Shown one piece after another: positions 1,146-37,195 of a stretch of DNA of 64,000 bases (positions are counted from its first letter, which is position 1; each line of letters opens with the position of its first letter). The notes under the pieces were generated by a model. It was not told where the DNA came from. It did not search any database and saw only the letters and a program-made list of their open reading frames with translations. The stretch lies in NCBI GenBank assembly GCA_044507735.1, contig JBIQJB010000011.1, forward strand, positions 1 to 64,000, written 5' to 3'. Origin of the DNA: Nitrosopumilales archaeon (GTDB lineage: Archaea; Thermoproteota; Nitrososphaeria; Nitrososphaerales; Nitrososphaeraceae). Both the position numbers and the translations under genes were made by a program.

Positions 1146-1164
1146 GTGGGGCCAGTGGGATTTG
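1146..1164 (+). repeat. Left attachment site (19-bp copy of the tRNA-Pro 3' end)
   Basis: GTGGGGCCAGTGGGATTTG is identical to 37095-37113 within the tRNA-Pro gene. Confidence 0.9.
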
Positions 1165-15680: not shown

Positions 15681-16463
15681 ATGGCTAAGGAAGAAGTTCA
15701 ACTTCAATTTTCAGCTACCACTAGAACAGCAGATCTCTGGAAGTCCATCTCTTCGGCAATAATGACAATTGTCGATGAAGCACATTTCGAAGCTAACAAA
15801 GAGGGGCTCCAGTTCAGGTCAATGGACCCTTCCCACATTGCCTTGATAGACATTACCTGTCCTGCAGTTGCATTCGCTGATTTCAAATGTGATTCTCCAA
15901 TTAAATTCGGATTTCGGGTGGATGACTTTGCGAAGATAGTGAAGCGTGCAGGTCCTAATGATTCCGTGGAGTTGAGTATTCAAGACAGTATGTTAAACAT
16001 AAAGACATCAGGCGGCTATACTAGAAACTACAAACTCAGACTGATTGAAAGTAACAGCGGATCTTCAACTCCTCTACCAAAACTTTCATTTGATAGCAGA
16101 TTGGTCATGGCACCGTCAATTCTTGACAGAATTCTAAGTGATATTGCTGTTGTATCCGACAAGATTACCATTGAGACGACAGAAAACAGACAACTCTTGT
16201 GCACCACAAGGGGAGATTCTGGAGAAGCGATAGTTACTTTGGATGACAAGAGCGGAATAGAAAACCTGAATGAAATATCGGTAACCAAGCCTAGTAAGGC
16301 TACTTATGGTTCAGAGTTTATGACCAAGCTGATAAAGGCGATAGGAGCGTCGTCAGAGACAGTGACGGCAGAATTTACTACAAAGATGCCTTTAAAGCTC
16401 ACATTTAGTCTTCCAAACGCAGTAAAGATAGAGTTCTTTATGGCGCCAAGAGTTGAAGACTAG
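15681..16463 (+). CDS. pcn: DNA polymerase sliding clamp PCNA (element-encoded)
   Basis: IVDEAHF...GLQFRSMDPSHIALID, PLPKLSF, C-terminal FFMAPRVED; 260 aa. Confidence 0.92.
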   Translation: MAKEEVQLQFSATTRTADLWKSISSAIMTIVDEAHFEANKEGLQFRSMDPSHIALIDITCPAVAFADFKCDSPIKFGFRVDDFAKIVKRAGPNDSVELSIQDSMLNIKTSGGYTRNYKLRLIESNSGSSTPLPKLSFDSRLVMAPSILDRILSDIAVVSDKITIETTENRQLLCTTRGDSGEAIVTLDDKSGIENLNEISVTKPSKATYGSEFMTKLIKAIGASSETVTAEFTTKMPLKLTFSLPNAVKIEFFMAPRVED

Positions 16464-16510: not shown

Positions 16511-16969
16511 TCAGTAAATCTCTACGATTAGTGTAGGCTGGATTTGAATTGGCTTTATCCTTCTTGAGTTCGGTCCTTGACTGACTATTTCGTAGATAAG
16601 CCTCCACAAACACTTATCCTCTTCTGAAAGTGTATTGTCAACATCACAGTAGTCCCTGACTCTTGGATCTTTTGATGCGGCTATCTTGATAGCATCAACT
16701 AACGCAATAGGTCTGCCTGCATCTTTGATTGCCTGCGCAATAGAATTGTAAACTGCGCCTTGCTCATCAACTGTGACCAATCTTCGGCCATCACAACTAA
16801 ATTCAGGCTCCCCTGCGCAATTATGGCAGCTAGTTACCCACCTCTTCTTCCGGCCCCGGGCATAGAACACTTCTATCGGAACGATGCTGGATGTATAGCA
16901 GTTGCAGTATTCGCACACTCGACTACTATATGCAGTAGCAAGATCCTTTGTCAGCACTCTGCAAAACAC
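16511..16969 (-). CDS. Small Zn-finger protein downstream of terL (copy A)
   Basis: CEYC...CHNC. A homologue at 25590-25978 occupies the same position. Confidence 0.7.
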   Translation of the reverse strand: MFCRVLTKDLATAYSSRVCEYCNCYTSSIVPIEVFYARGRKKRWVTSCHNCAGEPEFSCDGRRLVTVDEQGAVYNSIAQAIKDAGRPIALVDAIKIAASKDPRVRDYCDVDNTLSEEDKCLWRLIYEIVSQGPNSRRIKPIQIQPTLIVEIY

Positions 16970-16975
16970 TCCTTA

Positions 16976-18425
16976 CTATGTGATTTCATAGTATCTCATC
17001 GCCAGCCTGAATGCGTCAAAGGTGTCATTGTATGATGTGGATGCCTTGTCCAAAACCCCGTCTTGCTCTATTGCAGTCCTCAGAGAAGTTATCAGCTTGT
17101 TAAAGCGTGGATGAATGGCAACAAGCCCTTTTTCCAAGAACATCTTTGTATTGCCAAGCATCTCTTTGTGCTCGGAATTGAACGACACCGGCAGCACCTG
17201 CATCCAATATATCGGGTCGGTGTGATGTTTTTTCAGGTATGTCATTTGCTCTTCATAGTCTGTGCGCTCTCCAAGCGTGCGTTTTAATCCCGTTATTATC
17301 GCCGGATTTGAAGCGTCGATAAAGACCTTATTTACGTCATATTTCATGATGAGCTCCCAAGCTTTGTCCACCATTTCGTTAAAGTCTGGCCGCTCAAACT
17401 CGTCTGCATATATAGAATCTCGATTCTTGCGTTTCCCATCTGAGTCAAGACAAAGGCAAATTTGGAACAGCCAAAGGCAGGGTCAATGCCAAGCGACTTT
17501 GGGATGTTCGGATTGACAACGTCTGGGTCGTATTGCCTGCCAAACATTAGTGCCCGCTCAATGTCTTTTTGGTGGAATACATTTCCAATCTTGCCGATGT
17601 ATTTCAAATCATACTCGCGTTCAAATGACGGCGAGCCCATTGCCTTTTCAATTTCTTCTTTTGTGTAGATCTTGTTGATGCCGTACGTATAGTCGAGGTA
17701 AAGGCGGTTGTAAAGGCAAGACGCATCTGGCTCCTTTTCTATTTCTTCAAACAAGCCTTCAGGAGCATTGGGCGTCGACACCATCACGATATAAGGGTCT
17801 GATTTTGCGATATAGCGCTCGCTTACATCTCTGGCGTCTTGCTGCTGGCCGGGAGGGAAAAAGTCTGCTTCGTCTAGCAATATGAAGGACACGTCTGTGA
17901 GCCCTCGCATTGCATCGAGATGGTGAGAAGGGTATGCTTCAATTTTGACTCCGTTGAGTTCCACTACTGTCTCTTTTGTGCCAAAATGTAGCGTCGGAAA
18001 CAGGTTCTTTATCCTGCCAATCAGCGTTATTGCCAAGTCAATTCTAGGTCCAGTTACAATGCAACCCTTGAGCCTTTGAGCAGGTCGTCTTTCAGGCAAA
18101 GCCAAGCAATGTAACGGAGCATAAACTCAGTAATGCCAAGACCGGTCGCCTTCTTACTCCAGACATATTTTGACTTGCGCAACGCTTGGTAGACATCCCA
18201 TTCGTAATCAAAGAGCGGCAGCTGCCTGCCGTTTTTCTGCGGCAAGCCTATCATATGGTTAAAGCAGCAGTTGCCGCGTGTGGCAATATCAGCCACCTTG
18301 TGGTGTTCGACATTCCAGTACCAAAATGGCTTGCCTCTTAGCCTTTCAAAAAACCTTGTTTGCTGTGGTTGCTGTTCTGCCAGCACTGACACTTGCAGCC
18401 TTTTTCTCAAGTCCCGGAAGGTCAA
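16976..18425 (-). pseudogene. Terminase large subunit, copy A, with two frameshifts
   Basis: Three ORF pieces colinear with intact 25991-27439: a 1-nt deletion near 18065 and an extra AT in a TATAT run near 17410. Confidence 0.85.
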
Positions 18426-19005
18426 TCTGTGCTTTTGTCCCGGACTTTAATGCCCTTTCATCAGCTTTAGCTCTTACGGTTGTTGCTTGCTTGTCAGCGG
18501 CGGAAGACTGTTCTGATAGTCTTCTACCTCCCTCTTCGACAAATCTGACTGCGTCGTCGACCACGGAGCAATTCGTAAGCATGTCCATTGTGGTTGAAGC
18601 GCAGTCTTTAACAAGAGCCAACGCCTGTAGCTTCAACTTGTCATTTGCCGCCTGCTCTGCGATAACCCACGCGTTCCTGCGGACAGCAGTCAACGCCGCC
18701 AGGCATTTTTCAAACTCTAGCGGCAGCTTATCCTCTACATAATGTCTGATGTTGTAACCGGCCTGCTCTCTGAGAAAAGCAAAGTCGCGGCTGACGGTTG
18801 ATTCGTCAACTTGGAGTTTTGCGGCTATCTCCTTCTGGTTGAAACCCTGACTTGAATATTCCAACACCTTGCTTCTTCTCCATTCTATCTGCTGTTGCAC
18901 CTTCCAAGTCATTTCTTGCCTCTCCCAGAAATTGCGATGATGTGCGAGTGCAAACTCGATTGCCGCAAGTCCGTTTCTGTCCGCAATTCGACCTATCTCC
19001 ACCAT
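18346..19005 (-). CDS. HTH protein, putative terminase small subunit (copy A)
   Basis: EWRRSKVLEYSSQGFNQKEIAAKLQVDESTVSRD HTH, directly upstream of and overlapping terL. Confidence 0.65.
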   Translation of the reverse strand: MVEIGRIADRNGLAAIEFALAHHRNFWERQEMTWKVQQQIEWRRSKVLEYSSQGFNQKEIAAKLQVDESTVSRDFAFLREQAGYNIRHYVEDKLPLEFEKCLAALTAVRRNAWVIAEQAANDKLKLQALALVKDCASTTMDMLTNCSVVDDAVRFVEEGGRRLSEQSSAADKQATTVRAKADERALKSGTKAQIDLPGLEKKAASVSAGRTATTANKVF

Positions 19006-25291: not shown

Positions 25292-25590
25292 CTAAACATA
25301 AAAAACATCAGGCGTCTACACAAGGAATTACAAACTCAAACTCATTGAAAGCAGCAGCGGATCCTCAACTCCTCTTCCAAAACTTTCATTTGATAGTAGA
25401 CTGGTTATGGCTCCATCGATTCTTGACAGAATCCTAAGTGATATTGAGGTTGTATCTAACAAGATAACGATTGAGACACCCGGAAACAGACAACTATTGT
25501 GCACTACAATGGGCGATTCCGGTGAAGCTATTGTTTCATTGGATGACGGAAGTGGAATAGAAAACTTGAATGAAATATCAGTTACCAAAC
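25292..25590 (+). pseudogene. Internal remnant of a second PCNA gene
   Basis: Nucleotide and protein similarity to ~15993-16290 (NYKLKLIES..STPLPKLSFDSRLVMAPSILDRILSDI...NLNEISVTK). Both ends are missing. Confidence 0.85.
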
Positions 25591-25978
25591 TGACAATTTC
25601 ATAAATAAGCTTCCACAAACACCTATCTCCTTCTGAAAATGTGTTGTCAACGCCAAAATAGTGCCTGACCTTTGGATATTCCAACGCGGCAATTTTTATG
25701 GCATCAATCAAGGCAATAGGTCTGCCAACATCCTCGATTTGTTTGATTAAATCATAAACTTGTCCCTGCTCGTCAACCGTGACCAACCTACGACTGTCTT
25801 CCTGGAATGCGGGATCAGCAGCGCACTCAGAACAAGCAGTAACCCATCGTTTCTTTCTACCTCTGCAGTAGAACAATTCTATCGGAAACGTGTTTTGGTT
25901 GTAGCGGCCGCAGTATTCACAAATCTTACTGCGGTAAGCTGCATCCAAGTCCCTAATTAGCATTTTGCGCAAAAACAC
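25590..25978 (-). pseudogene. Zn-finger protein copy B, 3'-truncated and reading through into the antisense of the PCNA remnant
   Basis: Homologous to 16511-16969 up to LIYEIVS. The rest of ORF 25328-25978 is antisense PCNA sequence. Confidence 0.7.
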
Positions 25979-25990
25979 CTCTTCTTGCTG

Positions 25991-27439
25991 CTATGCGACC
26001 TCGTAGTATTTCATTGCTAACCTGAATGCGTCAAAAGTATCATTGTAAGAAGTGGATGCCTTGTCTAGCACTCCATTCTGTTCAATTGCCGTTCTAAGTG
26101 AAGTTATCAATTTGTTAAAGCTAGGATGAATGGCAACAAGGCCCTTTTCTAGGAACACCTTGGTATTGCCAAGCATTTCCTTGTGTTCTGAATTGAATGA
26201 TACTGGCACAACCTTCATCCAGTAGACTGGATCGCTGTAATGTTTTTTGATATACGATATTTCCGCTTCATAATCCGTATCCTCACCCAGCACACGCTTT
26301 AGCCCTGTTATTATTGCCGGATTAGCAGCATCGGTAAAGACCTTATCAACATTGTAGTTCGTTACAAGCTGCCAGGCTTTGTCAATCATCTCGTTAAAGT
26401 CAGGGCGTTCAAATTCGTCTGCGTATAGAACCTCCACCCTCTCATTTCGCATCTGTGTTAGAACAAAAGCAAACTTTGAAGAGCCAAATGCCGGATCAAT
26501 GCCAAGCGACTTTGGAGTCTTGGGGTTGACAACGTCGGGATCGTATTGCCTGCCAAATGCAATTGCCCTTTCGATATCTTTTTGATGAAATACATTGCCG
26601 ATCTTGCCAATGTATTTCAGGTTATATTCCCGGTCAAATGATGGAGAGCCCATCGCCTTTTCAATTTCTTCTTTAGTGTAGATCTTGTTTATTCCGTAGG
26701 TATAGTCAAGATATAAGCGGTGGTAAAGGCATTCTTCGTCTGGCTCTTTTTCTATCTGCTCAAATAATCCTTCTGGAGCATTGGGAGTCGATACCATTAC
26801 AATGTAAGGGTCAGACTTTGCAATGTAGCGTTCGCTCACATCCCTAGCATCCTGCTGCTGTCCCGGAGGGAAAAAGTCCGCCTCATCGAGTAATATGAGG
26901 GCGACGTCTGTCAAACCACGCATGGCATCAAGATGGTGTGAAGGATAGGCTTCGATCTTGACGCCATTTAATTCCCCGACTGTTTCCTTTGTGTTAAATG
27001 GCAATGCCGGAAACAGATTCTTTATCCGTCCGATCAAAGTTATCGCCAGATCGATTCGCGGTCCTGTAACAATGCATATTCTGCTACCCTTCAGATTGTC
27101 GTCTTTCAGGCAAAGCCAAGCAATGTAACGGAGCATAAATTCAGTAATTCCAAGGCCAGTCGCCTTTTTGATCCAAAGATACTTTGACTTGCGCAGCGCC
27201 TGATAGACTTCTTTTTCATAATCAAACAGCGGCAGCTCGCTACCATTCTTCTGTGGCAAGCCAATAATATGGTTAAAGCAACAATTGCCGCCAGTTGCAA
27301 TGTCTGTCACTTTATGCCGCTCGACATTCCAGTACCAGAAAGGCTTGCCCCTTAATCTATCAAAAAACCTTGTTTGCTGTTGTTGCTGTTCCGCCAGCGC
27401 TGATGTTCGAATTCTTTTCTGAAGCTCCTTGAATGTCAT
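25991..27439 (-). CDS. Terminase large subunit (intact, copy B)
   Basis: KKATGLGIT (deviant Walker A), LILLDEA (Walker B), VSTPN (motif III), and LGIDPA plus YNDTFDAFR (RNase H-like nuclease). Confidence 0.85.
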   Translation of the reverse strand: MTFKELQKRIRTSALAEQQQQQTRFFDRLRGKPFWYWNVERHKVTDIATGGNCCFNHIIGLPQKNGSELPLFDYEKEVYQALRKSKYLWIKKATGLGITEFMLRYIAWLCLKDDNLKGSRICIVTGPRIDLAITLIGRIKNLFPALPFNTKETVGELNGVKIEAYPSHHLDAMRGLTDVALILLDEADFFPPGQQQDARDVSERYIAKSDPYIVMVSTPNAPEGLFEQIEKEPDEECLYHRLYLDYTYGINKIYTKEEIEKAMGSPSFDREYNLKYIGKIGNVFHQKDIERAIAFGRQYDPDVVNPKTPKSLGIDPAFGSSKFAFVLTQMRNERVEVLYADEFERPDFNEMIDKAWQLVTNYNVDKVFTDAANPAIITGLKRVLGEDTDYEAEISYIKKHYSDPVYWMKVVPVSFNSEHKEMLGNTKVFLEKGLVAIHPSFNKLITSLRTAIEQNGVLDKASTSYNDTFDAFRLAMKYYEVA

Positions 27440-28067
27440 TCCCTTTTTCTACTCGAGAGGGGCGATGCGGATTATCAGACCCAGAATTAAATGCGCTATT
27501 ATCAGCTTTAGCTCTTACTGTTGTTGTCTGTTGCTGAGAGGTCAGTTTTGTAGTAGCAGCCGCAGCCTCTTCTATGAACCGAATAGCCTCGTCTACAATT
27601 GCACTATTTGTCAGAAGTTCCATTGTAGTTGAAGCACATTCTTTTACAAGCGATAGAGCCTGAATTTTTAGTTTGCCATCAGTCGATTGCTGCGCAACTA
27701 TCCACGCATCCCTTCTTACAGCATTCAAAGCAGTTACGCATTTTTCAAATTCTAGAGGCAATCTTTCCTCTATGAAATGCCGGATGTTATTCCGCGCTTG
27801 TTCTCTTAAGAATGCGAGGTCGCGGCTGACTGTTGATTCATCGACCTGCAATTTGGCGGCTATCTCTTTTTGGCTAAAGCCCTGGCTTGCATATTCTAAC
27901 ACCTTGCTTCGTCTCCACTCGAGCTGCAGTTGCAACCTCCAAGTCAAAAATTGCACCGCCACCTTTTTACAAAATCTTGCCCATGTGGATTCCACCACGA
28001 TCTGTCCGTTATTGTCCGCAAAGTATCCTTCTACAGCCAATTTTACGTCATCCTGAGCTATAACCAT
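27360..28067 (-). CDS. HTH protein, putative terminase small subunit (copy B)
   Basis: EWRRSKVLEYASQGFSQKEIAAKLQVDESTVSRD. Start placed at ATG 28067, downstream of the T-tract; overlaps terL. Confidence 0.65.
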   Translation of the reverse strand: MVIAQDDVKLAVEGYFADNNGQIVVESTWARFCKKVAVQFLTWRLQLQLEWRRSKVLEYASQGFSQKEIAAKLQVDESTVSRDLAFLREQARNNIRHFIEERLPLEFEKCVTALNAVRRDAWIVAQQSTDGKLKIQALSLVKECASTTMELLTNSAIVDEAIRFIEEAAAATTKLTSQQQTTTVRAKADNSAFNSGSDNPHRPSRVEKGNDIQGASEKNSNISAGGTATTANKVF

Positions 28068-28096
28068 TTGCAGCCTGCCATCGTATTCATGTTTGG

Positions 28097-28115
28097 AAAA
28101 AAGAAAAAAGGGGGG
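28097..28115 (-). terminator. Archaeal oligo-T terminator-like tract after the putative SSB gene
   Basis: CCCCCCTTTTTTCTTTTTT on the minus strand just after the stop at 28129. Confidence 0.5.
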
Positions 28116-28128
28116 AGTGTCAGCGCCA

Positions 28129-28476
28129 TCATGCTGGCACGAATGTATAGTTTGTGTCAAGACCGGCTCCGCGCCTGCTTGCCTTGATGTTCGTGTATCC
28201 CGCCTTGAGAAGCGCATTCAGGGCCAGAGCCCACTGTAGCGAGAGTGTCAGCACCTTTTGCTGATTGTCAGGAGTTACGACAGTATATTCCACTGCCTTG
28301 CTTTTTCTCCCGTTAATCTCGCGCTCGATAGGCTTGAACTTTGTCTTGTCGAACTTCAGTTGCACGGTTTGACCCGGCTGAATCTTGAGGAATTTCGACT
28401 GGCTTGCGGCTAGCGCTTCTATCTGTGCAAAGGGATCACTTTCTTGCTGTGACCTTGCTTCTGATGTCGTACTCAT
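28129..28476 (-). CDS. Putative single-stranded DNA-binding (OB-fold-like) protein
   Basis: KFLKIQPGQTVQLKF...IKASRRGAGLDTNYTFVP resembles the FLKL..GE / RxGxGxDTxY pattern of viral SSBs. Purine-rich RBS before ATG 28476; lies directly after the polymerase. Confidence 0.55.
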   Translation of the reverse strand: MSTTSEARSQQESDPFAQIEALAASQSKFLKIQPGQTVQLKFDKTKFKPIEREINGRKSKAVEYTVVTPDNQQKVLTLSLQWALALNALLKAGYTNIKASRRGAGLDTNYTFVPA

Positions 28477-28569
28477 TTCCTTTCTCCTCTTTTGTATCTT
28501 GGTTGGCAGCTGTTTGTCAGTCACCAGCCCCGCGACGAGGACGCCGCTGCCATACAGGGCCACTAGTGG

Positions 28570-31500
28570 CTATGCGTGTGCATCTCCCACCTCAACTCCC
28601 TGCTCTCTAGACGCTTTGCCAATGCGCCTGCTTTTTTTCCGAGTGGTACCATGATCAATTTTGAAAATCGATAACGCGATGCTATCTTCAGATCCGTGTC
28701 CCAGGATTACAAGCGGGTCTTTGAGGGTCGCAAACAGTGCCTTCTTGTATTCTGATACGCTAATGTCCTCGGGGTTGACTGGAATCGCATCTTTGTTCCC
28801 GTTAGGCATGGATTTGTAAAAGCAAATGACGTCGCCCTTCTTTGCCCCAACATGAAGGCCAACTCTTTTCTGTATCGTATTAGTTGCATATTCTGCGGGA
28901 TCCTTTGACAACGTCACGCAAATTTTCAGATCATCGGGAGCCACTCGCCTTGACTCCAAGTCATCAATTGCTCGCTTGATGTTAATTGTGGGATCGACCC
29001 CGTCCCGGAAGTCCTGAACAAGTTGGTCAAAGGTGCGCGTCACCCAGCGCGGCCTGTCACTTTTCTTACCCTCCATGCCCTTGACAACAGGCTGGCCGGT
29101 GCTGCTGTCAATGCCGATATAGTGCTTCTTCTTTATGTTGAGGAATTTACGAAATGTCCTTTGGTGTTCAACTTCGACGCCAAGTTCCTGCTGGCACCTA
29201 TCAATGAACCTCTGTAGAGACTCGTCACTCCCAGCAGAAAGGAAGAGAGAGTCTGTATCCCCAGCGCAAGTTTCAAAGCCGTATTCTTTGGCAAGGGTTT
29301 GCATGTGGCGAAGTGTGTACCTGCCGTATGCGGTGACCAACTCAGCCACCCGTTTGTCATAGTATTTGAACCCAGGATAGGCGAAGACTCCATACCCAGC
29401 ATTAATTAAAATCTTGAGCCCTCTGTCCTTGATCTTGTTACCAAGTTTCTTCTGCTTCAATCGCTCTTCACGGTAGCCGCTGAGCTTTGAAGGAAAGGCA
29501 CCTTGTTTTCGTTGGCAGATCCAATATCCTTTGGGATCAATCGTCTCGTCGCCAAGCACAACCTTTGCACTTGGCACGTCTCTGCAGCAGCCACAGTTCA
29601 CAGTGTCAAATGAAATATTGTAAGAGATAGCCACGGTAGGATAAAGGCTGGCGACATCCACTACCCTTACGTTGTCATAATTCCCAAGTCGTGGTTCAAG
29701 TACAAGGCCGCCTTCATATCTTGATCCGTCTGTAAGCTGCAATTCAAAAGCAGGTCTTGTGCATCCCATTTTGTCAAAAACATGAGCCCACCAGTTGGAA
29801 AGCCCGGTATGACATACATGCTCAAAGTCTAGCTCGATTAGCTCTGAAATTGCCTGCATAAGGTCAAGCACCTGCCCATCATTGACTTGCGCCAGCTCGA
29901 GGGCAAGCTGTGCGTCCTGTAAGACGTACTGCTTTTGTGTTGAAACTGACTCTCCTTCTACTGTTGCACCGGTTATCCCCCGGTGTTTTCCTTTTTCCAA
30001 AAGTGCCTGAGCGACGTCTTCCAGCTTGAGTGACCTATACTTGTTCTCAAAAATTGAGGACTTGACAAGCTCTTTATCGAAAATCCTGTAGAGGTCGATG
30101 TGTGTTTTTCCCTTGATAGAAGGGCAAAGGCTTGATGATATGTCGACAGGCGATACAATTCCGTTGGCCACGCATCTTTCATGCAATATGAGTAGGTCTG
30201 ATTCCTGCCCGGTAGTATACCATCCAACCGACAGCATCGGTAGCTGATCGAAGCGGTGCACTATCGCCTGCATTAGTGCCGCTTCAGAGTTACCGAAGTC
30301 GGCAATATGTAGTGCCTCGCTCCAGCCGAGATTATCGACAAAGCCAGCCGCAAAGAGCATTGCACCATTCTTGTCATCTCCCCGCCGCCATTCGAGGTCC
30401 AGCGCGCTTATTCGAATATTCGTTTTTGCTCCAGCGAATGATTTCGTCGAGACTTCGCTCTCACTTTTTGTAATTTCTTCTGTCGGGATACTATGAGTAT
30501 GTGAATGTTGAGCATCTCGGGTTCTTGCCACTTGTTCTTTGTGACCGGTGTTTTGCTGCGCGACGCCAGCCAAAGCATGGTTGCAAACACCACTGCCTGC
30601 TTCGCTGCTGGCGCCATAGCCGCCTTCGATCTTAACCCGGTTGTCCTTACTGTCGCCGGAAGCGTTGTCGCAGGGGGCACGGTCGTCGTGACTGTCGTCT
30701 GTCTTATGAAAATAGTCCTCGGGGTGCGAATAATATCGCTCCACCAGCTGCTCGATGGTCACTTGCCGGCCGTCATGATCAAGTATCGCCACTGAATAGC
30801 CCTTGTCAGAATAATGTCCTGCAGTGCGCCATATTACAGAGATTAGATAATTCTTATCAGGAAATTGTGCATTTTTTCCAAGATGCAGCTTCAAATATTT
30901 TGCATCGTTGTTCGATTCTCCCTTTTCGAACAAGCGAATGTTGCCGGATGACAGAATCGGCCAATATATCTTGGCCTTGCCATTGATCTCGCTATCTTTA
31001 CTGTCGATGTAGCCGATGTTATGCAGTGGGTAGATGTAGCGCTCCAGAAGCTGCTGTGTCGACAGGTCTCTGCCGGTGTATTGCTTTGTCGGCTCTTTTA
31101 GCTGCTCTGTCGTAACTGCAATCCTGCTTTCTTCAATCGTTTGGTTCGTCTTTTTGTTAATCTTGAAGTCAGGGTTTTTCTTTCGTTCATAGGCAGGCAG
31201 GAAGACTTCATGATACCATTCGAGAACGTACGGCTTTGTGCCATCACCGTACTCCATCAGCGATATTGCTTCCCTCAAGTCGTCAAAAATCGCAAACGGC
31301 ACAACTACAACTCCTGCTGCGCGTGTGTCCGACCCGGCAACATCTTGGTGGTTGGCGTCGTCGCCCTCCGGCACTGGAGTAGCCACGAGTTTGGGCCGCC
31401 TGTCCTTGTAAATCACCGGAAGCAACGAAAGATAAGTAAAAAGCCTGTAAGCAGTGGTCATGTCAAACGCCTTTTGCCCCGGAAGGGAGCGCGAAACAAC

Positions 31501-33948
31501 CCCATGGTAAGGAATAAGTACGTTGTTTTTGCCCGGCTCTTGACCCCCGTTAAATTCAAGCAGGGCTTGCTTGAGGGCTTCAATTACCAGCCGGACGGTC
31601 TTTTTTTCAGCATCGCTCACGACTTCGGCCTGATAGGCGACATCGGGCAGGCCGTGCCTGCTCGCTATAAGGTCGATGGCTTCTTGGTATTTTTTCGGGG
31701 CCATTTTTGGATTGGTCGTGATAAACCTACGCTGAATCTCTGGGTATCTTCGGTCGCGGGTAATATCCAGAGCCTGAGCAAAAATCACCGCCGGCCACCC
31801 TCTTAAGACGTTGCTCCGGGTCTCGATGCCATCGTACGTGTCCACGAATTCATATTCGACCTCATACTTGTCATGGGACAGAAGAGGCATCAACTGTGAC
31901 AGCAAAGTAGGGCTGGGTGTATCGAGAAAGAGCAAAATTTTATTTTTAAGGCTTATCATTTTCTTCGCTTGGCTGAACAGTTCAGTGCGCTGGTTCTTTA
32001 GATCCAGTATTTCATTTTCAAGGCCTCTGGCTTGGCCATTCTCGCTGTCAGCATTTCCGGCGTGATTTTTATCCTCCTCGTGACCAGCAGTATTGTCCGC
32101 GACTCTGCTCTGATCTATGCTGTTTTTGCTGCTGCTTGCAGCCCTGCTTACGCCTGCTTTCTTTTTTTCCACCAGTTCATGCAGCCTTTTTGTTTTCTCT
32201 GCTATTGCCCCATTAATCTCGGCTATCTTGGGCATCAACGGTTCGTATTCTTTGGTTTCAGGATTTTTGACTACAAGCACTCCGCGCCTATGGAACAGAG
32301 CCTTGTCTGTCATGCCAACAAGGTGCAGCACATCGTCAGAAGGGAACTTCTCGGCTACCTTGTTGATGACATAGTTTTTGCCTTCACCTGACGGGGCGTT
32401 GATGCACATGTTGAGCGGATTGTTTGTGTATGCACTAAGCATAGCGATGAACAACTGCTTTGCAAGCAGGTCCTCTTGTCGAGCTTCCTTGACGATGCTG
32501 GCAAGGCAGAACTGCACAGGATTGTCCCGCATAGCCGGCGAATTCAGTACCAGCTGCTGGTACTTCGTCATAGCGTCGGCAATCGGTGTCGTTGATGCGC
32601 AATCTTCTGTTGCTGTCGGCGCGGCAGCCCTTGCTACTGCATTTTTTGCAGCCGAATCCGGTTTTGCTGCCTTTGGCTCCGGTGCATATATTATCTTCAT
32701 GATATTGGATACTATTTCATATGCAGCATGCGGATCCCCGTTAACATGGGCAAGGATTTGAACTAAGGCTCCCGTCCCAGCAACAGCCTTGCCCGAGATT
32801 CCATTCTTGTATGTGTTTTGGACTACGGCGAGCCTCTGTTGCTTTTCAAGGTCGTCGGTATAGTCACAGAGTGCCGCCACAATATTCTCTGCGCTTGGCT
32901 GCGAAATGTCACACATGAACAGCGCGCCAGACAAGGGAAAGCAGATCTCATCTCGGTATCCCTGCCTGTAAGATGGGAGAATGTATGACACAATCTTCTC
33001 TTCCTTCTGACGGCTGAGGACTTTGAACCTGCTGCCTGAATTGCTAACAGCACCGTGGTCGCGCTCGTTTTGTCCAGCGCTAGTTCGGCTAGTTCCTGTT
33101 ATGGTTCTGTCGCCAACAGCGGAGCTGTTGACTATTGCGCCATCTCCTGTAAGGGCTCTGATCTCTGTTTTCTTCCTCTCGCTGATAAGATATGGAGCCA
33201 ATATTGTTCCTGCCAGGAACAGATAGAGTCCGTTCAGTGGCACAATCCTATCAGTGCGCCCAATTGCAGAATACGTAAAGCCGGCATCGTCACGATGAGT
33301 TGACGGCGGCAGCGTAAGGGCAGAGCTCGATTTGTTAGTCTTGATTTCAAAGCCATACCCGTGTTCACAGTCGCGGCTGTGTATTGCCGGAAAGAGTTTT
33401 TCCTCCAGCCAGTAAAAATGAAACCCGTATGGTTTTCTTGACTTTGTAACATAGGTAATGCGTCTTAAGGCATCTAAGAGGGAGAATTGTGCCGTTTCAC
33501 CTGATGATGATAGCATTGCAAGAATGTCTGCCGTGACTGAGTCTGGCTTCAAGGAGGCAGATTCAAAGAGCATCCGTGCGAGTTCAGACGACAGTTTAGA
33601 CTTGGGGGCGATGGGGGAAGTGAAGATCTTTGCGACATTCTCGCTGTCGCAGTCAAAGCCGCACAAGTAGTAATGCTTTCCATTGGGTCCAACTAGTCGC
33701 GTGCGACCAAAGATCGTTGCAATGCCCTTGATGGCCGAACCATCCTCGGTCAGTTTGTCAGGGTGTATATCCTCTGGATGCTCATACGAATGCGACCACT
33801 TTGCCACTGGCCTTCCGCCGGCTCCAAGGGCGACAAGCTTGAAACCAATGTCATGCAGCTTGTCAACTGCAGCCTGTGGGATGCGGTCATCATTTGGCTT
33901 GGGTAGCGACCCCACTGCTGTCGTCATGTTCGGTCGGTTAACCTCCAT
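28570..33948 (-). CDS. 1792-aa fusion: Prim-Pol primase + AAA+/P-loop ATPase + 3'-5' exonuclease + family-B DNA polymerase
   Basis: GFDCD, KSRKPYGFHFY, LPPSTH (Prim-Pol); APSGEGKN, LLFLD, IQRRF (ATPase); ALDLEW, YVLQDA (exo); YEGGLVLEP, DVASLYP, KILINAGYG, GDTDS, KKHY, KGME (PolB). Confidence 0.88.
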   Translation of the reverse strand: MEVNRPNMTTAVGSLPKPNDDRIPQAAVDKLHDIGFKLVALGAGGRPVAKWSHSYEHPEDIHPDKLTEDGSAIKGIATIFGRTRLVGPNGKHYYLCGFDCDSENVAKIFTSPIAPKSKLSSELARMLFESASLKPDSVTADILAMLSSSGETAQFSLLDALRRITYVTKSRKPYGFHFYWLEEKLFPAIHSRDCEHGYGFEIKTNKSSSALTLPPSTHRDDAGFTYSAIGRTDRIVPLNGLYLFLAGTILAPYLISERKKTEIRALTGDGAIVNSSAVGDRTITGTSRTSAGQNERDHGAVSNSGSRFKVLSRQKEEKIVSYILPSYRQGYRDEICFPLSGALFMCDISQPSAENIVAALCDYTDDLEKQQRLAVVQNTYKNGISGKAVAGTGALVQILAHVNGDPHAAYEIVSNIMKIIYAPEPKAAKPDSAAKNAVARAAAPTATEDCASTTPIADAMTKYQQLVLNSPAMRDNPVQFCLASIVKEARQEDLLAKQLFIAMLSAYTNNPLNMCINAPSGEGKNYVINKVAEKFPSDDVLHLVGMTDKALFHRRGVLVVKNPETKEYEPLMPKIAEINGAIAEKTKRLHELVEKKKAGVSRAASSSKNSIDQSRVADNTAGHEEDKNHAGNADSENGQARGLENEILDLKNQRTELFSQAKKMISLKNKILLFLDTPSPTLLSQLMPLLSHDKYEVEYEFVDTYDGIETRSNVLRGWPAVIFAQALDITRDRRYPEIQRRFITTNPKMAPKKYQEAIDLIASRHGLPDVAYQAEVVSDAEKKTVRLVIEALKQALLEFNGGQEPGKNNVLIPYHGVVSRSLPGQKAFDMTTAYRLFTYLSLLPVIYKDRRPKLVATPVPEGDDANHQDVAGSDTRAAGVVVVPFAIFDDLREAISLMEYGDGTKPYVLEWYHEVFLPAYERKKNPDFKINKKTNQTIEESRIAVTTEQLKEPTKQYTGRDLSTQQLLERYIYPLHNIGYIDSKDSEINGKAKIYWPILSSGNIRLFEKGESNNDAKYLKLHLGKNAQFPDKNYLISVIWRTAGHYSDKGYSVAILDHDGRQVTIEQLVERYYSHPEDYFHKTDDSHDDRAPCDNASGDSKDNRVKIEGGYGASSEAGSGVCNHALAGVAQQNTGHKEQVARTRDAQHSHTHSIPTEEITKSESEVSTKSFAGAKTNIRISALDLEWRRGDDKNGAMLFAAGFVDNLGWSEALHIADFGNSEAALMQAIVHRFDQLPMLSVGWYTTGQESDLLILHERCVANGIVSPVDISSSLCPSIKGKTHIDLYRIFDKELVKSSIFENKYRSLKLEDVAQALLEKGKHRGITGATVEGESVSTQKQYVLQDAQLALELAQVNDGQVLDLMQAISELIELDFEHVCHTGLSNWWAHVFDKMGCTRPAFELQLTDGSRYEGGLVLEPRLGNYDNVRVVDVASLYPTVAISYNISFDTVNCGCCRDVPSAKVVLGDETIDPKGYWICQRKQGAFPSKLSGYREERLKQKKLGNKIKDRGLKILINAGYGVFAYPGFKYYDKRVAELVTAYGRYTLRHMQTLAKEYGFETCAGDTDSLFLSAGSDESLQRFIDRCQQELGVEVEHQRTFRKFLNIKKKHYIGIDSSTGQPVVKGMEGKKSDRPRWVTRTFDQLVQDFRDGVDPTINIKRAIDDLESRRVAPDDLKICVTLSKDPAEYATNTIQKRVGLHVGAKKGDVICFYKSMPNGNKDAIPVNPEDISVSEYKKALFATLKDPLVILGHGSEDSIALSIFKIDHGTTRKKSRRIGKASREQGVEVGDAHA

Positions 33949-34136
33949 TTCAGTCGCGCAATGTCATCTCTCAACTCGCGCAGTAGTCGCCCTTGCTTTG
34001 TCAGCTCGTCCTGCATTTCATCGACCTGAGCAACAAGCCAATCGATCCGACGGGATTCGTAACGGAGTTTTTCCGGGATGGCGTTTTTTTGGGACTCGTT
34101 CGAATTGAGCTTCTTAGTATCGTCAATCAATGTCAA
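33924..34136 (-). CDS. Small coiled-coil protein
   Basis: TTG start overlaps the upstream stop (TTGA). Heptad-like RRIDWLVAQVDEMQDEL..LLRELRDDIARL. Confidence 0.55.
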   Translation of the reverse strand: MTLIDDTKKLNSNESQKNAIPEKLRYESRRIDWLVAQVDEMQDELTKQGRLLRELRDDIARLKWRLTDRT

Positions 34137-34530: not shown

Positions 34531-35613
34531 ATGACCCAGTACGACCATGATATCGATGATGCCATTATTTCATACTTGTACAAGAAGGAAAAGGCTAATT
34601 TTTCCCAACTAGTTCAGCATGTCAGCCGCCGCATGCAGAGGCGAATATCAAATAAGGTTCTTAGCAACCACCTCAAGAGGCTAAAGCAGGAGAGGATAAT
34701 CAGAAGAGACGAAGAAAGTGCAGGGGTTGAGAGATTTTCATATCTAACAAAGTTGGCACGGCAGCAGCTCGATTTGGGAATTCCAGTCCGTGTCAAAACC
34801 AAAAGCGAACAGAGAATCGCTGCATTGGATCGAGCGGACATAGAAGACATGGCAGATAACAGAAAGCGGATGTATCAGCTGCTATTTTTTATTGCATCGT
34901 CAGGAGCGGGGCGCCTGAAACCAAGCCCAAAGCCTGAACCGGGAGACATTGGTGTGTATGGTCCTGATGGCAAACTGATGGCATATTCCTACTATGACAT
35001 ACCGGGTGTTGGCGCGTCGGATTTTTCAGTCGAGCCGAGAGAAATTATTGGCCAAGCAGGAGCATTGACACATGTTTCTGACCTTTCACAGTCCGAGGTT
35101 GCAGCCTTGTTTGACATGCTTTTAAAAGAGAATCCGCCGCTGATAAGACCAATAGACGAGGTTGGAGGAGAGACAAGGTATGGAATCGCTGACAGGTTGC
35201 TGTCAGAGTATATCTCAGACTGTTGGACCCTTTTCCCATCGGTGCAATCAAGGCTAGAGGAAACATGGCAATACGTACGCAAGCCTGAGAATGAGGAGGA
35301 GATAGGATGGTATGTCTTTTTTTATGGAAAGAGAAAGGCAAAGAGCTTTTTTGCAAAGGCACAAGAAACCAGAAGGTATTCAAAAGCAGACAGCAAGATA
35401 AGAAAATCTTTCGAAAAGAGCATAAGGGATTGGGATACAGCAATACAGCACCGACTATACGGGTGGCGCGACGAGAAAGGCACGCATCATTCTGGGATAT
35501 ATAAAAAGTACGGAAGAACCATTATGAAAAAGTACAAGTTTCCTGCGCAAGTCTTGCTGGAAATGATATATCCAAAGTTCCTTAAAAAATTGCAGAAAGA
35601 AAAAAGGATCTAG
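34531..35613 (+). CDS. Winged-HTH domain protein, putative element regulator
   Basis: IDDAIISYL..KANFSQL...ISNKVLSNHLKRLKQERII wHTH; divergent from the RHH-led operon. Confidence 0.72.
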   Translation: MTQYDHDIDDAIISYLYKKEKANFSQLVQHVSRRMQRRISNKVLSNHLKRLKQERIIRRDEESAGVERFSYLTKLARQQLDLGIPVRVKTKSEQRIAALDRADIEDMADNRKRMYQLLFFIASSGAGRLKPSPKPEPGDIGVYGPDGKLMAYSYYDIPGVGASDFSVEPREIIGQAGALTHVSDLSQSEVAALFDMLLKENPPLIRPIDEVGGETRYGIADRLLSEYISDCWTLFPSVQSRLEETWQYVRKPENEEEIGWYVFFYGKRKAKSFFAKAQETRRYSKADSKIRKSFEKSIRDWDTAIQHRLYGWRDEKGTHHSGIYKKYGRTIMKKYKFPAQVLLEMIYPKFLKKLQKEKRI

Positions 35614-36977
35614 GATGGCAGAGACTCTGCCACGGGTTTGTAGCACCCTTTTTCGATTAGTTGCCTTGCCATTCTTTTTCTTGTGTCATCATCAGCGTCT
35701 GCCATGATCCCTACCATTGCTTGGAGCATAGCAAATGTCTCTTCCTGCTTCTGTTCTAGCGCACGCATTCTTCCGGTCTCGCCTGCCTTAATTTCTTCAT
35801 ATGCTTGCGCAGTCAATGGGTAGCTGCAGCCTAAGCAGAGTCTCGAATCTATAGTATTGACAAGCTTGCAGCGCGGGCAGCCAAGGACGACAGGCTTGCT
35901 TTGCGCTGACTCGTCTTCGACCAGTATACCATCCCTTATGAGGATCTGCTTCTTGACAGCCTCGCCCATGCGCCTCTTGATATACCTTGAAGCCTGCTTT
36001 GAGTTCATTGACCAGCGCACTTTTCGCTTCAAAGCATAATCTGGCAGCAGGTCGCTATCAAAAGTAATTGCAGAATGCCGGATGCAGTAGGGATTCCATT
36101 TTTTGGTACGCAATAGATACTCGAGCTTTTCTCTTTGATTGAGGTCTGTTATCGATCCTTCCTTTAGCATTCGCTCGATTCTTTGTCGGAGCCGCTTCAT
36201 CATTCCCCACATTGCCTCCGGCCTTACAGCGGTTCCGTCATAGAGGTTGCAAATGAGCCGCGCTTCAGGGTCGTCTTTAAGCGGATGCAAATTCAGCCAG
36301 TCGCGTACAAACGGAAACGAGCAGGTCAGCAGGATAGGTCCGCCGCCGGTTTTTGTGTTGTATGGGATCTCGCCCTCGGCCCAGCGCTCCCTGAGCCTGA
36401 CATTCTTTATCTTGAGCATAGTGACTTCATGGTTTCTGGCATCCAAGTCCCAGAAAAGCGTCAGTGCTGCCTTGTTTCGCGCCTTGGGCTCATACTTGAC
36501 AATGGAGAGCAGCTCATCCCTGTCCCAGATTTCATTTTCAGAGTATGGGCTGAGCCTCTTTGTCCTCTTTTCTCTTATCCTTGCAAAGGGCGGAGTCTCC
36601 CAGTCTGCCATTATTTCAGGGTCTTCGTCGATATCGTCTTTTCCTCTCTGGTTATAGAGCCACCTGTAAAAGAGCTTGATTCGCCGCAGGTAGTGGTTGT
36701 ACGTCGTTATCCACTTCTTTTCCGGGTCTTGCTCAGGAGGCTTGACTTTTGTGTCCAGAAACGCCGCAATCTGGCTTTTTTGCTGGACGTCAAAGAACGT
36801 TGTGTCTGGCCCAAGAAAGTTGGCGTAGGCAATTGCTACCTTGAGGTTGTTGTTTTGGTGTTGCTCCGACGAGCCCCTTGCCTTCATGTAGGCGCGAAAC
36901 TCGTCGATAATTGCCGCATTGGTTTGGTTTGGCACAAGTGCTATCTTTGAGACGGTTGTTGTCAGCTTTGCCGGCAT
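35610..36977 (-). CDS. Tyrosine recombinase/integrase
   Basis: WDLDARNHE (Arg), PYCIRHS, SRYI (Tyr), C-terminal CPRC..CLGC Zn ribbon; adjacent to the tRNA. Confidence 0.92.
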   Translation of the reverse strand: MPAKLTTTVSKIALVPNQTNAAIIDEFRAYMKARGSSEQHQNNNLKVAIAYANFLGPDTTFFDVQQKSQIAAFLDTKVKPPEQDPEKKWITTYNHYLRRIKLFYRWLYNQRGKDDIDEDPEIMADWETPPFARIREKRTKRLSPYSENEIWDRDELLSIVKYEPKARNKAALTLFWDLDARNHEVTMLKIKNVRLRERWAEGEIPYNTKTGGGPILLTCSFPFVRDWLNLHPLKDDPEARLICNLYDGTAVRPEAMWGMMKRLRQRIERMLKEGSITDLNQREKLEYLLRTKKWNPYCIRHSAITFDSDLLPDYALKRKVRWSMNSKQASRYIKRRMGEAVKKQILIRDGILVEDESAQSKPVVLGCPRCKLVNTIDSRLCLGCSYPLTAQAYEEIKAGETGRMRALEQKQEETFAMLQAMVGIMADADDDTRKRMARQLIEKGCYKPVAESLPS

Positions 36978-37092: not shown

Positions 37093-37195
37093 TGGTGGGG
37101 CCAGTGGGATTTGAACCCACGATCTCCAGCGCCCCAGGCTCGTCGGTTGTTTTTTGCAACCTCTGACATCCTAGACCAAGCTAGACTATGGCCCC
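37093..37195 (-). tRNA. tRNA-Pro(GGG) with encoded CCA and a 24-nt intron (37139-37162) at position 30/31
   Basis: Acceptor stem GGGGCCA/TGGCCCC and T-arm GTGGG-TTCAAAT-CCCAC. Removing the intron restores the anticodon arm TCAGC-CTGGGGC-GCTGG. Confidence 0.93.
37095..37113 (+). repeat. Right attachment site within the tRNA-Pro 3' end
   Basis: Identical to 1146-1164. Confidence 0.9.

Follow-up and report, generated by a model that had tools for sequence, protein, structure and literature searches.

A single open reading frame in the genome of a soil ammonia-oxidizing archaeon of the Nitrososphaera group probably encodes the replication protein of an integrated element of ~36 kb located in tRNA-Pro(GGG). 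We consider this protein, P0001, to be a real and selectively maintained fusion of four units, the mechanism of which can be deduced from its parts and which likely originated from an operon. The evidence comprises its domain identities, intact catalytic motifs, conserved architecture, genomic setting and split-gene relatives. [quoted passage not shown] The features of the gene in the window (the whole stretch of DNA analyzed, 64,000 nt) are as follows.

28570..33948, minus strand: whole replicase gene, P0001, 1792 aa; a single open frame, with identical contigs from four runs.
33145..33879, minus strand: Prim-Pol (AEP) catalytic domain, aa ~24-268, with D99/D101 (33646-33654), H177 and LPPSTH (213-218).
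32674..33021, minus strand: PriCT/PriX-like helical bundle that follows the primase, aa ~310-425.
31219..32541, minus strand: AAA+ ATPase module, MCM-like by its predicted fold, aa ~470-910, with Walker A (518-525), Walker B (672-676), invariant S691/D693, R741 (QRRF) and K753.
31969-32238, minus strand: coiled-coil insert of the ATPase module, aa 571-660.
30733..31110, minus strand: winged-helix-like region with a small alpha/beta part, at the C-terminal end of the ATPase module, aa ~947-1072, from AF2 secondary structure.
30415-30696, minus strand: low-complexity linker of ~95 aa, aa ~1085-1178, pLDDT <50, rich in S, A, G, D, E and T.
29749..30414, minus strand: 3'-5' exonuclease domain, aa ~1179-1400, with ExoI D1184/E1186, ExoII D1251 and ExoIII Y1341/D1345.
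28654..29748, minus strand: polymerase domain (PF00136), aa ~1401-1765, with motif A D1431, motif B K1512..YG1520, motif C D1564/D1566 and KxY K1608/Y1610; it also holds a Cys cluster, C1452/C1454/C1455/C1478.

The original prediction described one uninterrupted ORF of 1792 aa, and the ORF listing and translation bear this out, with an ATG start and no internal stop. All of the motif coordinates it quoted agree with the positions computed from the translation, which are given here.

33646-33660, minus strand: GFDCD, aa 97-101.
33412-33426, minus strand: GFHFY, aa 175-179.
33295-33312, minus strand: LPPSTH, aa 213-218.
32374-32397, minus strand: APSGEGKN, aa 518-525.
31921-31935, minus strand: LLFLD, aa 672-676.
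31723-31734, minus strand: QRRF, aa 739-742.
30391-30405, minus strand: ALDLE (ExoI), aa 1182-1186.
29914-29928, minus strand: YVLQD, aa 1341-1345.
Minus strand, aa 1431-1437: DVASLYP.
Minus strand, aa 1512-1520: KILINAGYG.
Minus strand, aa 1563-1567: GDTDS.

The 1792-aa frame is not an assembly artefact. In the nearest relatives with a stand-alone PolB, the separate PolB gene shares just 4 nt with the one upstream, and a one-base error could in principle join such a pair, so that the long ORF might be two or three adjacent genes fused by mis-assembly or sequencing error. We find this hardly credible, given that Logan contigs from four runs in three studies are identical across 28400-34100 (0 other letters, 0 gaps), and that two of them, of 32,214 and 10,015 nt, span the entire ORF. 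The runs are not fully independent, because this DNA may itself derive from several of them. A check for a stop or frameshift in the linker, which had been proposed with the prediction, found neither in any of these contigs. In addition, the frame is continuous in two homologues on other contigs (P0003 and P0004, on contigs of 7.7 and 24.6 kb), and the ~95-aa linker is absent from every split operon. No RNA run containing the stretch is listed.

These two homologues are metagenomic and collinear with P0001 over their full length: P0003 (1809 aa) shares 64% identity at 99% coverage, and P0004 (1813 aa) shares 63% at 98%. The folded domains are 59-79% identical, whereas the linkers are 22-28% identical; the P0001 linker is only 28% identical to those of P0003 and P0004, compared with 73-76% in the adjoining PolB. 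The full-length architecture is thus shared by the two metagenomic proteins, and the fusion occurs in none of 400 other genomes of the class. The homologues are not always split into separate genes: eight fused forms were seen, though split forms are commoner. The fusion is rare, and most of the short PolBs of this type (mini-PolBs) are separate genes.

No Pfam, NCBIfam or PHROG model matches residues 1-1200, and whole-protein scans named the PolB part alone. The three-module reading of the original prediction (Prim-Pol, ATPase and PolB) is right. The N-terminal domain of P0001 does fold as an AEP/Prim-Pol: the AEP catalytic fold is present in a model of moderate confidence (mean pLDDT 68, pTM 0.48), and D99 and D101 of the motif I DxD are invariant in 13/13 rows of an alignment of relatives (A3). 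In the same alignment P214 and S216 are invariant, and H177 and H218 are conserved in ≥90% of rows. We take the H177 region to be Motif II (sxH) and the PPSxH-type sequence to be the third motif. The Pfam Prim-Pol family (PF09250) has no match above its curated cut-off in the first 1200 aa of P0001, and matches 3/13 of the aligned relatives (best E 4.7e-7). In P0100, P0102, P0149 and P0153 the same N-terminal domain (aa 23-429) forms a fusion with a genuine MCM helicase, and in P0041, which passes Pfam Prim-Pol, it is joined to the same ATPase module as in P0001. A search of solved-structure sequences with the A3 profile returned only MCM chains, because A3 includes MCM-fused rows, and was uninformative on the primase.

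The ATPase module was modelled with high confidence (AF2, pLDDT 83.8), and MCM AAA+ domains make up all nine of its best structural matches, which cover the AAA+ parts of the MCM chains only. It is this predicted fold that points to a relationship with MCM. Pfam MCM does not match P0001, comparison of the ATPase family profile with the Prim-Pol-MCM relatives by hhalign gave a probability of 2.9%, and the same profile found no AAA+ or MCM protein among solved-structure sequences, only coiled-coil noise and, in the winged-helix region, a weak match to the MarR winged helix (E 0.013). The winged-helix region is 76-79% identical to P0003 and P0004. The N-terminal OB-fold/Zn domain of MCM is absent, with no MCM_OB match in P0001; such a match is present in 5/13 of the Prim-Pol relatives.

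Within the ATPase family alignment, the P-loop GK occurs in 43/43 non-gap rows, Walker B is acidic in 46/46, and R741, a putative arginine finger by its position, is invariant in 46/46. Walker A of P0001 ends in GKN (N525), as in 5/43 rows, and Walker B has a single acidic residue (LDTP; D676 followed by T) rather than DE, so ATP hydrolysis may be weak or unusual. The family is large (1618 cluster representatives at E≤1e-3), and relatives of the N-terminal 1180 aa, chiefly of the ATPase module, occur in 36 of the 400 other genomes of the class. A profile scan of genome contigs with alignment A6 gave 27 species-genome loci at which no primase or PolB like those of P0001 lies within 6 kb of the module. 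Since the module is often alone and mini-PolBs are mostly separate genes, fusion is not required for function.

These properties could also fit an initiator-primase-polymerase that is not a helicase, in which the AAA+ part, like Orc1/Cdc6 or of MoxR/RavA type, would mark or remodel the origin and recruit the host MCM, leaving synthesis to the Prim-Pol and PolB. The DNA-encircling N-terminal domain of MCM is missing, the GKN and LDTP motifs are atypical, initiators, too, typically have a winged helix at the C terminus, and a recruiter would be expected to occur, as this module commonly does, in a stand-alone form and often with no polymerase nearby. We think such a protein unlikely in view of the uniformly MCM structural matches, the genuine MCM that takes the place of the module behind the same Prim-Pol in relatives, and the known helicase types (D5/DUF5906 SF3 or MCM) encoded upstream of PolB in split operons. 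We favour an MCM-like motor.

The PolB part is recognized by profiles. PF00136 matches aa 1406-1691 with 87.5 bits against a cut-off of 23 (E 1.1e-24, Pfam), and the exonuclease and polymerase motif residues given above, including Y1519 and G1520 of motif B, are invariant in 7/7 rows of alignment A1, which consists of seven fusion-protein rows. The best solved relative is Dpo1 (PolB1) of Sulfolobus solfataricus (1s5j; E 6.2e-42), of which residues 278-830 align with aa 1246-1758. Dpo1 begins with an N-terminal domain, of ~200 or more residues, that has no counterpart in P0001: NCBIfam PolB1 profiles matched only from profile positions 272-349 on, and the linker leads straight into ExoI. Stand-alone relatives have a similar form, starting ≤60 aa from ExoI in 76/109 rows. 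By its sequence, this part is a short family B polymerase without the usual N-terminal domain, and it would be proofreading. A predicted complex of the PolB tail (aa 1725-1792) with the PCNA of the element scored 0.02 against a mark of 0.34 and gave no answer on binding. The tail contains a sequence, ALSIFK (aa 1758-1763), that is only loosely PIP-like.

The gene lies in an element of ~35.97 kb including both repeats, integrated in tRNA-Pro(GGG) and bounded by 19-nt direct repeats. The tRNA gene was missed by default ARAGORN and by Rfam at the gathering threshold.

37093..37195, minus strand: tRNA-Pro(GGG) with a 24-nt intron, its 3' end being the integration site (ARAGORN with intron option).
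37095..37113, no strand: tRNA-proximal att repeat, 19 nt, exact direct repeat of family D11.
1146..1164, no strand: distal att repeat, 19 nt, family D11, 100% identity.
35610..36977, minus strand: integrase-like gene adjoining the tRNA, 455 aa, 53% identical (E 3e-139) to the partial ORF 3-1100.
34531..35613, plus strand: winged-helix protein between integrase and replicase, 360 aa, with weak Pfam matches to HxlR (E 4.7e-4) and MCM4_WHD (E 2.2e-3).
15681..16463, plus strand: element PCNA, 260 aa (Pfam PCNA_N, E 4.3e-17; PCNA_C, E 6e-14).
25991..27439, minus strand: terminase-large-subunit-like gene, 482 aa, three genes downstream of the replicase (PHROG phrog_2, E 1.4e-26).

The 455-aa integrase-like ORF itself has no Pfam match; the partial ORF 3-1100 has a weak one to Phage_integrase (E 5e-4). 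The genome encodes a second PCNA, 52% identical to that of the element, on a different contig (C17). Neither Pfam nor the solved-structure sequences gave a match to the terminase-like ORF. Two other ORFs gave leads only: one of 895 aa resembles a beta-propeller (Atlas structure rows, TM ~0.4), and one of 383 aa matched hypothetical families only. For many thaumarchaeal integrated elements, no replication protein could be named (Krupovic 2019).

The element shows signs of decay, in that a second terminase-like copy is frameshifted and a PCNA fragment contains a stop codon, and no virion genes (capsid, portal) were recognized in it by Pfam and PHROG scans. Combined with the change of Ser/Thr to Asn in Walker A, this raises the question of whether the element is defective and its fusion protein is decaying or has been partly inactivated, with at least the ATPase dead and nothing replicated by the protein. 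We judge this very improbable. GKN is common to P0003 and P0004, and as these are so diverged from P0001 it represents a conserved state, not a recent lesion. The 5.4-kb frame and all other catalytic motifs are intact, and the folded domains are conserved far above the linkers, which argues for a maintained fusion.

Split-gene relatives suggest how the fusion arose. At five metagenome loci, a gene of 648-1073 aa overlaps the start of the mini-PolB by 4 nt. The gene upstream of the mini-PolB carries Prim-Pol (E 5e-24) at one locus (L024) and Prim-Pol, D5_N and DUF5906 at another (L058), and MCM genes lie upstream of PolB at a third (L031). In a FastTree phylogeny of 109 PolB parts, the clade of P0001, P0003 and P0004 (support 100) nests among stand-alone mini-PolBs, and the distribution of 8 fused and 76 stand-alone rows requires at least five changes of state. 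The fusion probably formed from a translationally coupled operon in which a primase-helicase gene preceded that of a mini-PolB, as is common in related elements; this PolB family has probably been joined to upstream replication genes several separate times. The metagenome scan gave mini-PolB loci and no further full fusions because its search patterns fell in the PolB part: 36/37 loci with P0001 segments at E≤1e-5 are PolB-only, and the other (L050) is a 2.1-kb fragment with an ATPase-end piece and a PolB piece. IMG/VR contained no close relative, only two contigs with 25-27% relatives of the ATPase module, and a second pattern set found nothing there.

From these parts we infer every enzymatic activity of P0001, as well as its oligomeric state, polarity, origin binding and use of PCNA. 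The winged-helix and helical parts would locate the origin of the element, and the AAA+ module would oligomerize, probably as a ring like MCM, and open or unwind the DNA. The Prim-Pol would then synthesize a primer de novo, to be extended by the tethered PolB with 3'-5' proofreading, and the PCNA of the element possibly contributes processivity. P0001 could in this way act as the self-priming, self-unwinding replicase that had been proposed. We advance more tentatively, as somewhat doubtful, the idea of a minimal archaeal replisome in one chain, in which each motor of an MCM-like ring carries a primase and a leashed PolB, and host primase, MCM and PolB are dispensable; the motor would found a large, unnamed helicase family of Nitrososphaerales mobile elements, and the mini-PolB would be a portable cassette fused at least five times to three helicase types.

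If active, P0001 would be the first archaeal one-chain primase-helicase-polymerase and the first such enzyme built on an MCM-like rather than an SF3 motor, and the all-in-one replicase solution of phage 1706 would have arisen independently from unrelated parts. Its architecture suggests a function by association both for a large unannotated ATPase family of soil ammonia oxidizers and for a short PolB family without the N-terminal domain. It also makes the element a replication-competent candidate among thaumarchaeal integrated elements, and the protein a candidate for a mesophilic one-protein system of DNA replication in vitro.

Several known systems share parts of this design. The ATPase of pRN1 ORF904 is an SF3 helicase, and that protein has no PolB, whereas the P0001 ATPase has a predicted MCM-like fold and an attached PolB. 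Apicoplast Prex is a PolA-based all-in-one replicase. Like P0001, Prex and Pas55 of phiAsp2 have helicase, primase and polymerase in one chain, but all three modules come from other families; Pas55 is described as SF3, DnaG and PolA (PMC4889955). Prim-Pol-MCM fusions, such as the MCM of a Bacillus cereus prophage as reported in PMC5862659 and P0100 and P0102, have the same Prim-Pol and helical domain (29-31% identity, A3) ahead of an MCM-fold helicase. However, these have genuine MCM domains (Pfam MCM, MCM_OB, MCM_lid) and lack a polymerase, whereas the P0001 module has no MCM profile match and no OB domain. Another of the closest known systems is the MCM-like helicase Cch from staphylococcal SCCmec (DUF927; 5dgk). 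Casposons have Cas1 beside PolB, whereas the present element has tRNA-derived direct repeats and a tyrosine-integrase-like gene; Pfam found no Cas1 in 26 element ORFs of ≥120 aa, a scan that left out 7164-7667, 18054-18425 and 18278-18742. Protein-primed PolB elements encode a pPolB with TPR1/TPR2 inserts, whereas the best relatives of the P0001 PolB are primer-dependent PolB1 enzymes.

The closest parallel is GP55 of Lactococcus phage 1706. That no Prim-Pol/ATPase/PolB triple fusion characterized in archaea was known had been overstated as a mark of novelty, since helicase-primase-PolB fusions are in print and GP55 was characterized in 2025. The gp55 protein was described in 2016 (Kazlauskas 2016, PMC4889955), its type was named the HelPrimPolB group in 2020 (Kazlauskas 2020, PMC7544198), and helicase, primase, polymerase and exonuclease activities were reported in one chain (Zhang 2025, PMC12205980), which is a precedent that such a fusion works. 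We found no description of an archaeal MCM-like version in the literature searched, and the supplementary tables of PMC7544198, PMC6563490 and PMC12205980 may already list this PolB group or similar proteins. A tblastn search of 50,697 phage records matched 322, all at <60% identity; the best 20 of the 322 have ≤25% identity, in the PolB part only, and Lactococcus is not among the ten, of 17, organism names listed for the matches. GP55/HelPrimPolB, as described, and P0001 both combine an AEP and its helical accessory domain with a helicase-type ATPase and a C-terminal exonuclease-proficient PolB, and both belong to a mobile genome. They differ in order and helicase class, the 1317-aa GP55 being described as an SF3 helicase followed by a PriS-like AEP, aHD and PolB. 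GP55 is further reported to be mainly a dimer, to belong to phages of bacteria and to have a PolB in an EpsilonN-like clade, whereas the P0001 PolB is closest to archaeal Dpo1/PolB1. P0001 is a fusion of a kind already known, composed of non-orthologous modules, in another order and in an archaeal host.

P0001, the replicase under study, combines a Prim-Pol domain, an MCM-like AAA+ module, a winged-helix region and a PolB predicted to be exonuclease-proficient, with catalytic positions intact and with the modules joined in conserved order by poorly conserved linkers. It is encoded on the minus strand at 28570-33948 in a single open frame that starts with ATG and runs for 1792 codons. All motifs quoted in the original prediction lie where it had placed them, their positions being recomputed here from the P0001 translation:

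33646-33660, minus strand: GFDCD
33412-33426, minus strand: GFHFY
33295-33312, minus strand: LPPSTH
32374-32397, minus strand: APSGEGKN
31921-31935, minus strand: LLFLD
31723-31734, minus strand: QRRF
30391-30405, minus strand: ALDLE
downstream of ALDLE, minus strand: YVLQD, DVASLYP, KILINAGYG and GDTDS

Per-run Logan contigs (4 runs, 3 studies) show 0 differing letters and 0 gaps over 28400-34100, including the linker where a stop or frameshift had been considered, and two of them span the whole gene. Eight runs holding the stretch, including three of the four compared, are possible sources of the assembly, so this identity mainly excludes a MAG-specific join. Collinearity is the stronger argument for a real frame: P0003 (1809 aa) and P0004 (1813 aa), from other contigs in the public collection, share the full-length architecture and align with P0001 over 98-99% of its length at 63-64% identity. 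Identity to these two is 59-79% in the folded parts and 22-28% in the three linkers, as expected of a multidomain protein with selection acting on every domain.

No profile in the libraries scanned matched the first 1200 residues. When 1.84 billion cluster representatives were searched in full with HMMER for relatives of aa 1-1180, those of aa ~9-440 occurred in two other settings. In one (P0100, P0102, P0149 and P0153), the domain is fused to genuine MCM helicases with Pfam MCM, MCM_OB and MCM_lid matches; in the other (P0041), it is fused to the same middle module as in P0001 and passes Pfam Prim-Pol (E 4.7e-7). D99 and D101 of the DxD motif, P214 and S216 are invariant in the 13-row N-terminal alignment, and H177 and H218 are kept in at least 90% of its rows. 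The N-terminal third is thereby a predicted primase-polymerase.

Residues ~470-1100 matched 1618 cluster representatives at E<=1e-3 and 974 at 1e-10 (HMMER), most of them stand-alone proteins of about 550-840 aa without a Pfam domain. An AlphaFold2 model of this module, built with 46 relatives aligned, is confident (pLDDT 83.8, pTM 0.81), and it includes a coiled-coil insert of ~90 residues (aa 571-660); toward the C-terminus, a region of the module gives a weak winged-helix signal. Because Foldseek ranks only MCM2-7 and archaeal MCM chains at the top (E from 4e-6), the module is assigned to the MCM class; the AAA+ ATPase of the original prediction thus stands, with a class other than SF3. The ATPases of pRN1 and NrS-1, to which it had been compared, are of SF3 type, unlike this MCM-like module. 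The kinship is invisible in sequence: hhalign against the Prim-Pol-MCM relatives gave a probability of 2.9%, and the family profile matched no AAA+ chain among solved-structure sequences.

G523 and K524 are present in all 43 non-gap rows of the 46-row module alignment, and the Walker B acidic residue (D676), S691, D693, P719, R741 and K753 in all 46. R741 lies within QRRF, flagged as Arg-finger-like in the original prediction, and by position would correspond to the arginine finger of MCM SRFD. The Walker A Ser/Thr is replaced by Asn in P0001, as in 5 of the 43 rows (P0003 and P0004 included), and Walker B reads LDTP rather than DE, both of which weaken the call of a helicase. The MCM OB/Zn domain is absent, judging from the profile scan and the extent of the structural matches. 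After MCM, the structural matches are RavA (15.1), BchI (14.1), ComM (12.6), BrxL (11.7) and the SCCmec helicase Cch (10.2). RavA and BchI score almost as well as MCM, the Walker motifs deviate from the canonical form and the N-terminal domain of MCM is lacking; for these reasons we retain as the main rival a role of the module in initiation or remodelling in place of a helicase function, which we regard as unlikely given that MCM chains head the structural matches. We favor the reading that the middle third is an AAA+ motor with a modeled MCM-like fold, a member of a large unnamed family.

By homology, the C-terminal third is a short PolB of the proofreading kind. Its Pfam hit is PF00136, covering aa 1406-1691 with 87.5 bits (cut-off 23); in the NCBIfam archaeal PolB1 profiles, which align to aa 1210-1747, the match begins only at profile positions 272-349. 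Among solved structures, Sulfolobus Dpo1 is the best relative (E 6.2e-42; P0001 aa 1246-1758 against Dpo1 278-830). Invariant in seven aligned fusion proteins are exonuclease residues D1184 and E1186 (ExoI), D1251 (ExoII) and Y1341 and D1345 (ExoIII), and polymerase residues D1431 (motif A), K1512, Y1519 and G1520 (motif B), D1564 and D1566 (motif C) and K1608 and Y1610 (KxY). Between motifs A and B, C1452, C1454, C1455 and C1478 (29512-29598, minus strand; aa 1452-1478) are also invariant in these seven proteins and may form a metal site or disulfide cluster, C1454 not being constant in a second alignment. The PolB N-terminal domain is missing, and a low-complexity linker (aa ~1085-1178, pLDDT below 50) abuts the ExoI strand. 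This absence is a family trait, as 76 of 109 near-complete PolB parts start within 60 residues of ExoI. Shorter PolB relatives number 295 among 8000 candidates scored, most being 510-660 aa long and 50-64% identical; two further PolB genes on other contigs of the source genome share 29-30% identity with the P0001 PolB. Two relatives of this mini-PolB, P0175 and P0209 (824 and 832 aa), carry an additional Dam-type methylase domain (PF02086), so the polymerase cassette fuses to other partners too.

Homologues are not always split into separate genes, the outcome that the original prediction had set against a fusion. Besides P0003 and P0004, fused forms include P0005 (1451 aa) and P0036 (1402 aa), in which PolB is attached to the same ATPase module with no Prim-Pol, and P0006 (1590 aa), in which it is attached to a Pfam-positive Prim-Pol and a central region of another kind; P0007 and P0008 are related to P0006. 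Split forms are commoner. At five metagenome loci the mini-PolB start codon lies in a 4-nt overlap with an upstream gene of 648-1073 aa. In L024 Prim-Pol (E 5e-24) is found in the upstream gene, and PolB shares 63% identity with its P0001 counterpart; in L058 the upstream gene combines Prim-Pol, a CHC2 zinc finger, D5_N and DUF5906, and in L031 MCM genes lie upstream of mini-PolB. Tyrosine integrases also occur in L024 and L025. In the split-operon locus L026, Pfam gave no match for the upstream gene (648 aa), and the gene directly after mini-PolB (4281-5300, plus strand) has a Pfam PriX domain (E 1.8e-9). On the 2.1-kb contig L050, a stretch similar to the terminus of the ATPase module (P0001 aa ~1067-1129) precedes a PolB-like piece (aa ~1622-1657) by only ~180 nt; deletion has probably reduced a fusion gene to a remnant here.

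In a FastTree phylogeny of 109 PolB parts and 3 outgroup rows, from which 19 partial rows were dropped, P0001, P0003 and P0004 form a clade (support 100) nested in a seven-row clade (support 100) with stand-alone P0163, P0164, P0165 and P0167. P0005 and P0036 fall far off, and P0006, P0007 and P0008 in three different sub-clades. The fused or stand-alone state (8 rows fused, 76 stand-alone, 25 unlabelled) needs at least five changes, a count that is indicative only because long branches were flagged in this quick tree. Among 400 other genomes of the class, 36 match P0001 aa 1-1180 at E<=1e-10, mostly in the ATPase module, and none holds the long fused frame; the P0001-type fusion is thus rare. 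In 5 of these 36 genomes the contig holding the ATPase gene gave no mini-PolB match, and no P0001-like primase or PolB occurs within 6 kb of the module at 27 species-genome loci. By MAG label, nearly all 27 are in Nitrososphaerales-type genomes, with one in Conexivisphaerales and one in Elusimicrobia; the last (L087), 27% identical, is the sole bacterial record among them.

Contig C43, whose first 64 kb make up the window, belongs to a 2.33-Mb genome (55 contigs, 97% complete), and the replicase lies in an element of ~36 kb (about 1146-37113) with these features:

1146-1164 and 37095-37113: exact 19-nt direct repeat (att), from a repeat search
37093-37195, minus strand: tRNA-Pro(GGG) with a 24-nt intron, from ARAGORN with introns allowed
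35610-36977: 455-aa integrase-like gene adjoining the tRNA, 53% identical to ORF 3-1100
34531-35613: winged-helix protein
25991-28217, minus strand: HTH gene, then terminase-large-subunit-like gene (phrog_2, E 1.4e-26), a short distance downstream from the replicase
15681-16463, plus strand: PCNA; contig C17 carries a second PCNA with 52% identity to it
8861-14995, plus strand: Eco57I/MmeI-family methylase (1029 aa), then PLD-nuclease and SNF2/helicase protein (1014 aa)
within the element: beta-CASP-like hydrolase; cupredoxin-domain protein

The right-hand repeat is the 3' end of the tRNA-Pro(GGG) gene, which is the integration target; this tRNA escaped ARAGORN run with default settings as well as Rfam at gathering threshold. 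Partial ORF 3-1100, just outside the distal repeat, is truncated by the contig end and weakly matches Phage_integrase; as a second integrase-like gene, it suggests that another element, extending past the contig end, is integrated in tandem at this tRNA. None of the 26 element ORFs scanned was recognized as a capsid, portal, Cas1 or conjugation gene, which points to a cryptic integrated element or defective provirus and agrees with the earlier separation from casposons. The HTH protein could be a small-terminase analogue, and the methylase and PLD-SNF2 pair, which lies in the half with low GC (40-43%), resembles a restriction or defense module. A paralogous block of ~2.8 kb occurs twice at 70-84% identity: the copy at 16001-18830 has an intact PCNA, a terminase-like gene split in two frames (16976-17374, 17344-18105) and an HTH gene, and that at 25301-27865 has a PCNA fragment with a stop (25296-25595), an intact terminase-like gene and an HTH gene. 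Housekeeping genes begin at about 37.4 kb; outside the element, an Rfam match to 5_ureB_sRNA (59911-60215, plus strand; 44.3 bits against a gathering score of 40) may be a chance or coding-sequence match.

We propose that the AAA+ module would oligomerize and then open or unwind the origin of the element, that Prim-Pol and the helical bundle would make a primer, and that PolB, on its flexible tether of ~95 residues, would take over this primer and proofread, possibly clamped by the PCNA of the element. The closest precedent is GP55, the replicase of Lactococcus phage 1706.

The original prediction's premise that such triple fusions were not known was mistaken. An SF3 helicase, AEP and PolB are combined in gp55 of phage 1706 and in Rhodococcus phages, and SF3, DnaG and PolA in phiAsp2 (Kazlauskas 2016, PMC4889955); the HelPrimPolB group was named within the EpsilonN-like PolB clade (Kazlauskas 2020, PMC7544198), and helicase, primase, polymerase and exonuclease activities were demonstrated for the single chain of GP55 (Zhang 2025, PMC12205980). 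Helicase-pPolB fusions are known in polinton-like viruses. Sections of Krupovic 2019 catalogue thaumarchaeal integrated elements with primpol-S3H, MCM and PolB genes and do not mention a P0001-type fusion there. Open-access full texts, supplements aside, yielded no description of a Prim-Pol/MCM-like/PolB fusion or of its ATPase family, which is not proof of absence. With phage triple fusions already published, the concept is known, and the archaeal version differs in its parts. Notable in P0001 are the MCM-like motor, the large unnamed ATPase family behind it and the repeated fusions of a PolB lacking its N-terminal domain. P0001 is convergent with GP55, from which it differs in domain order, helicase class (MCM-like as opposed to SF3), primase subtype and PolB lineage.
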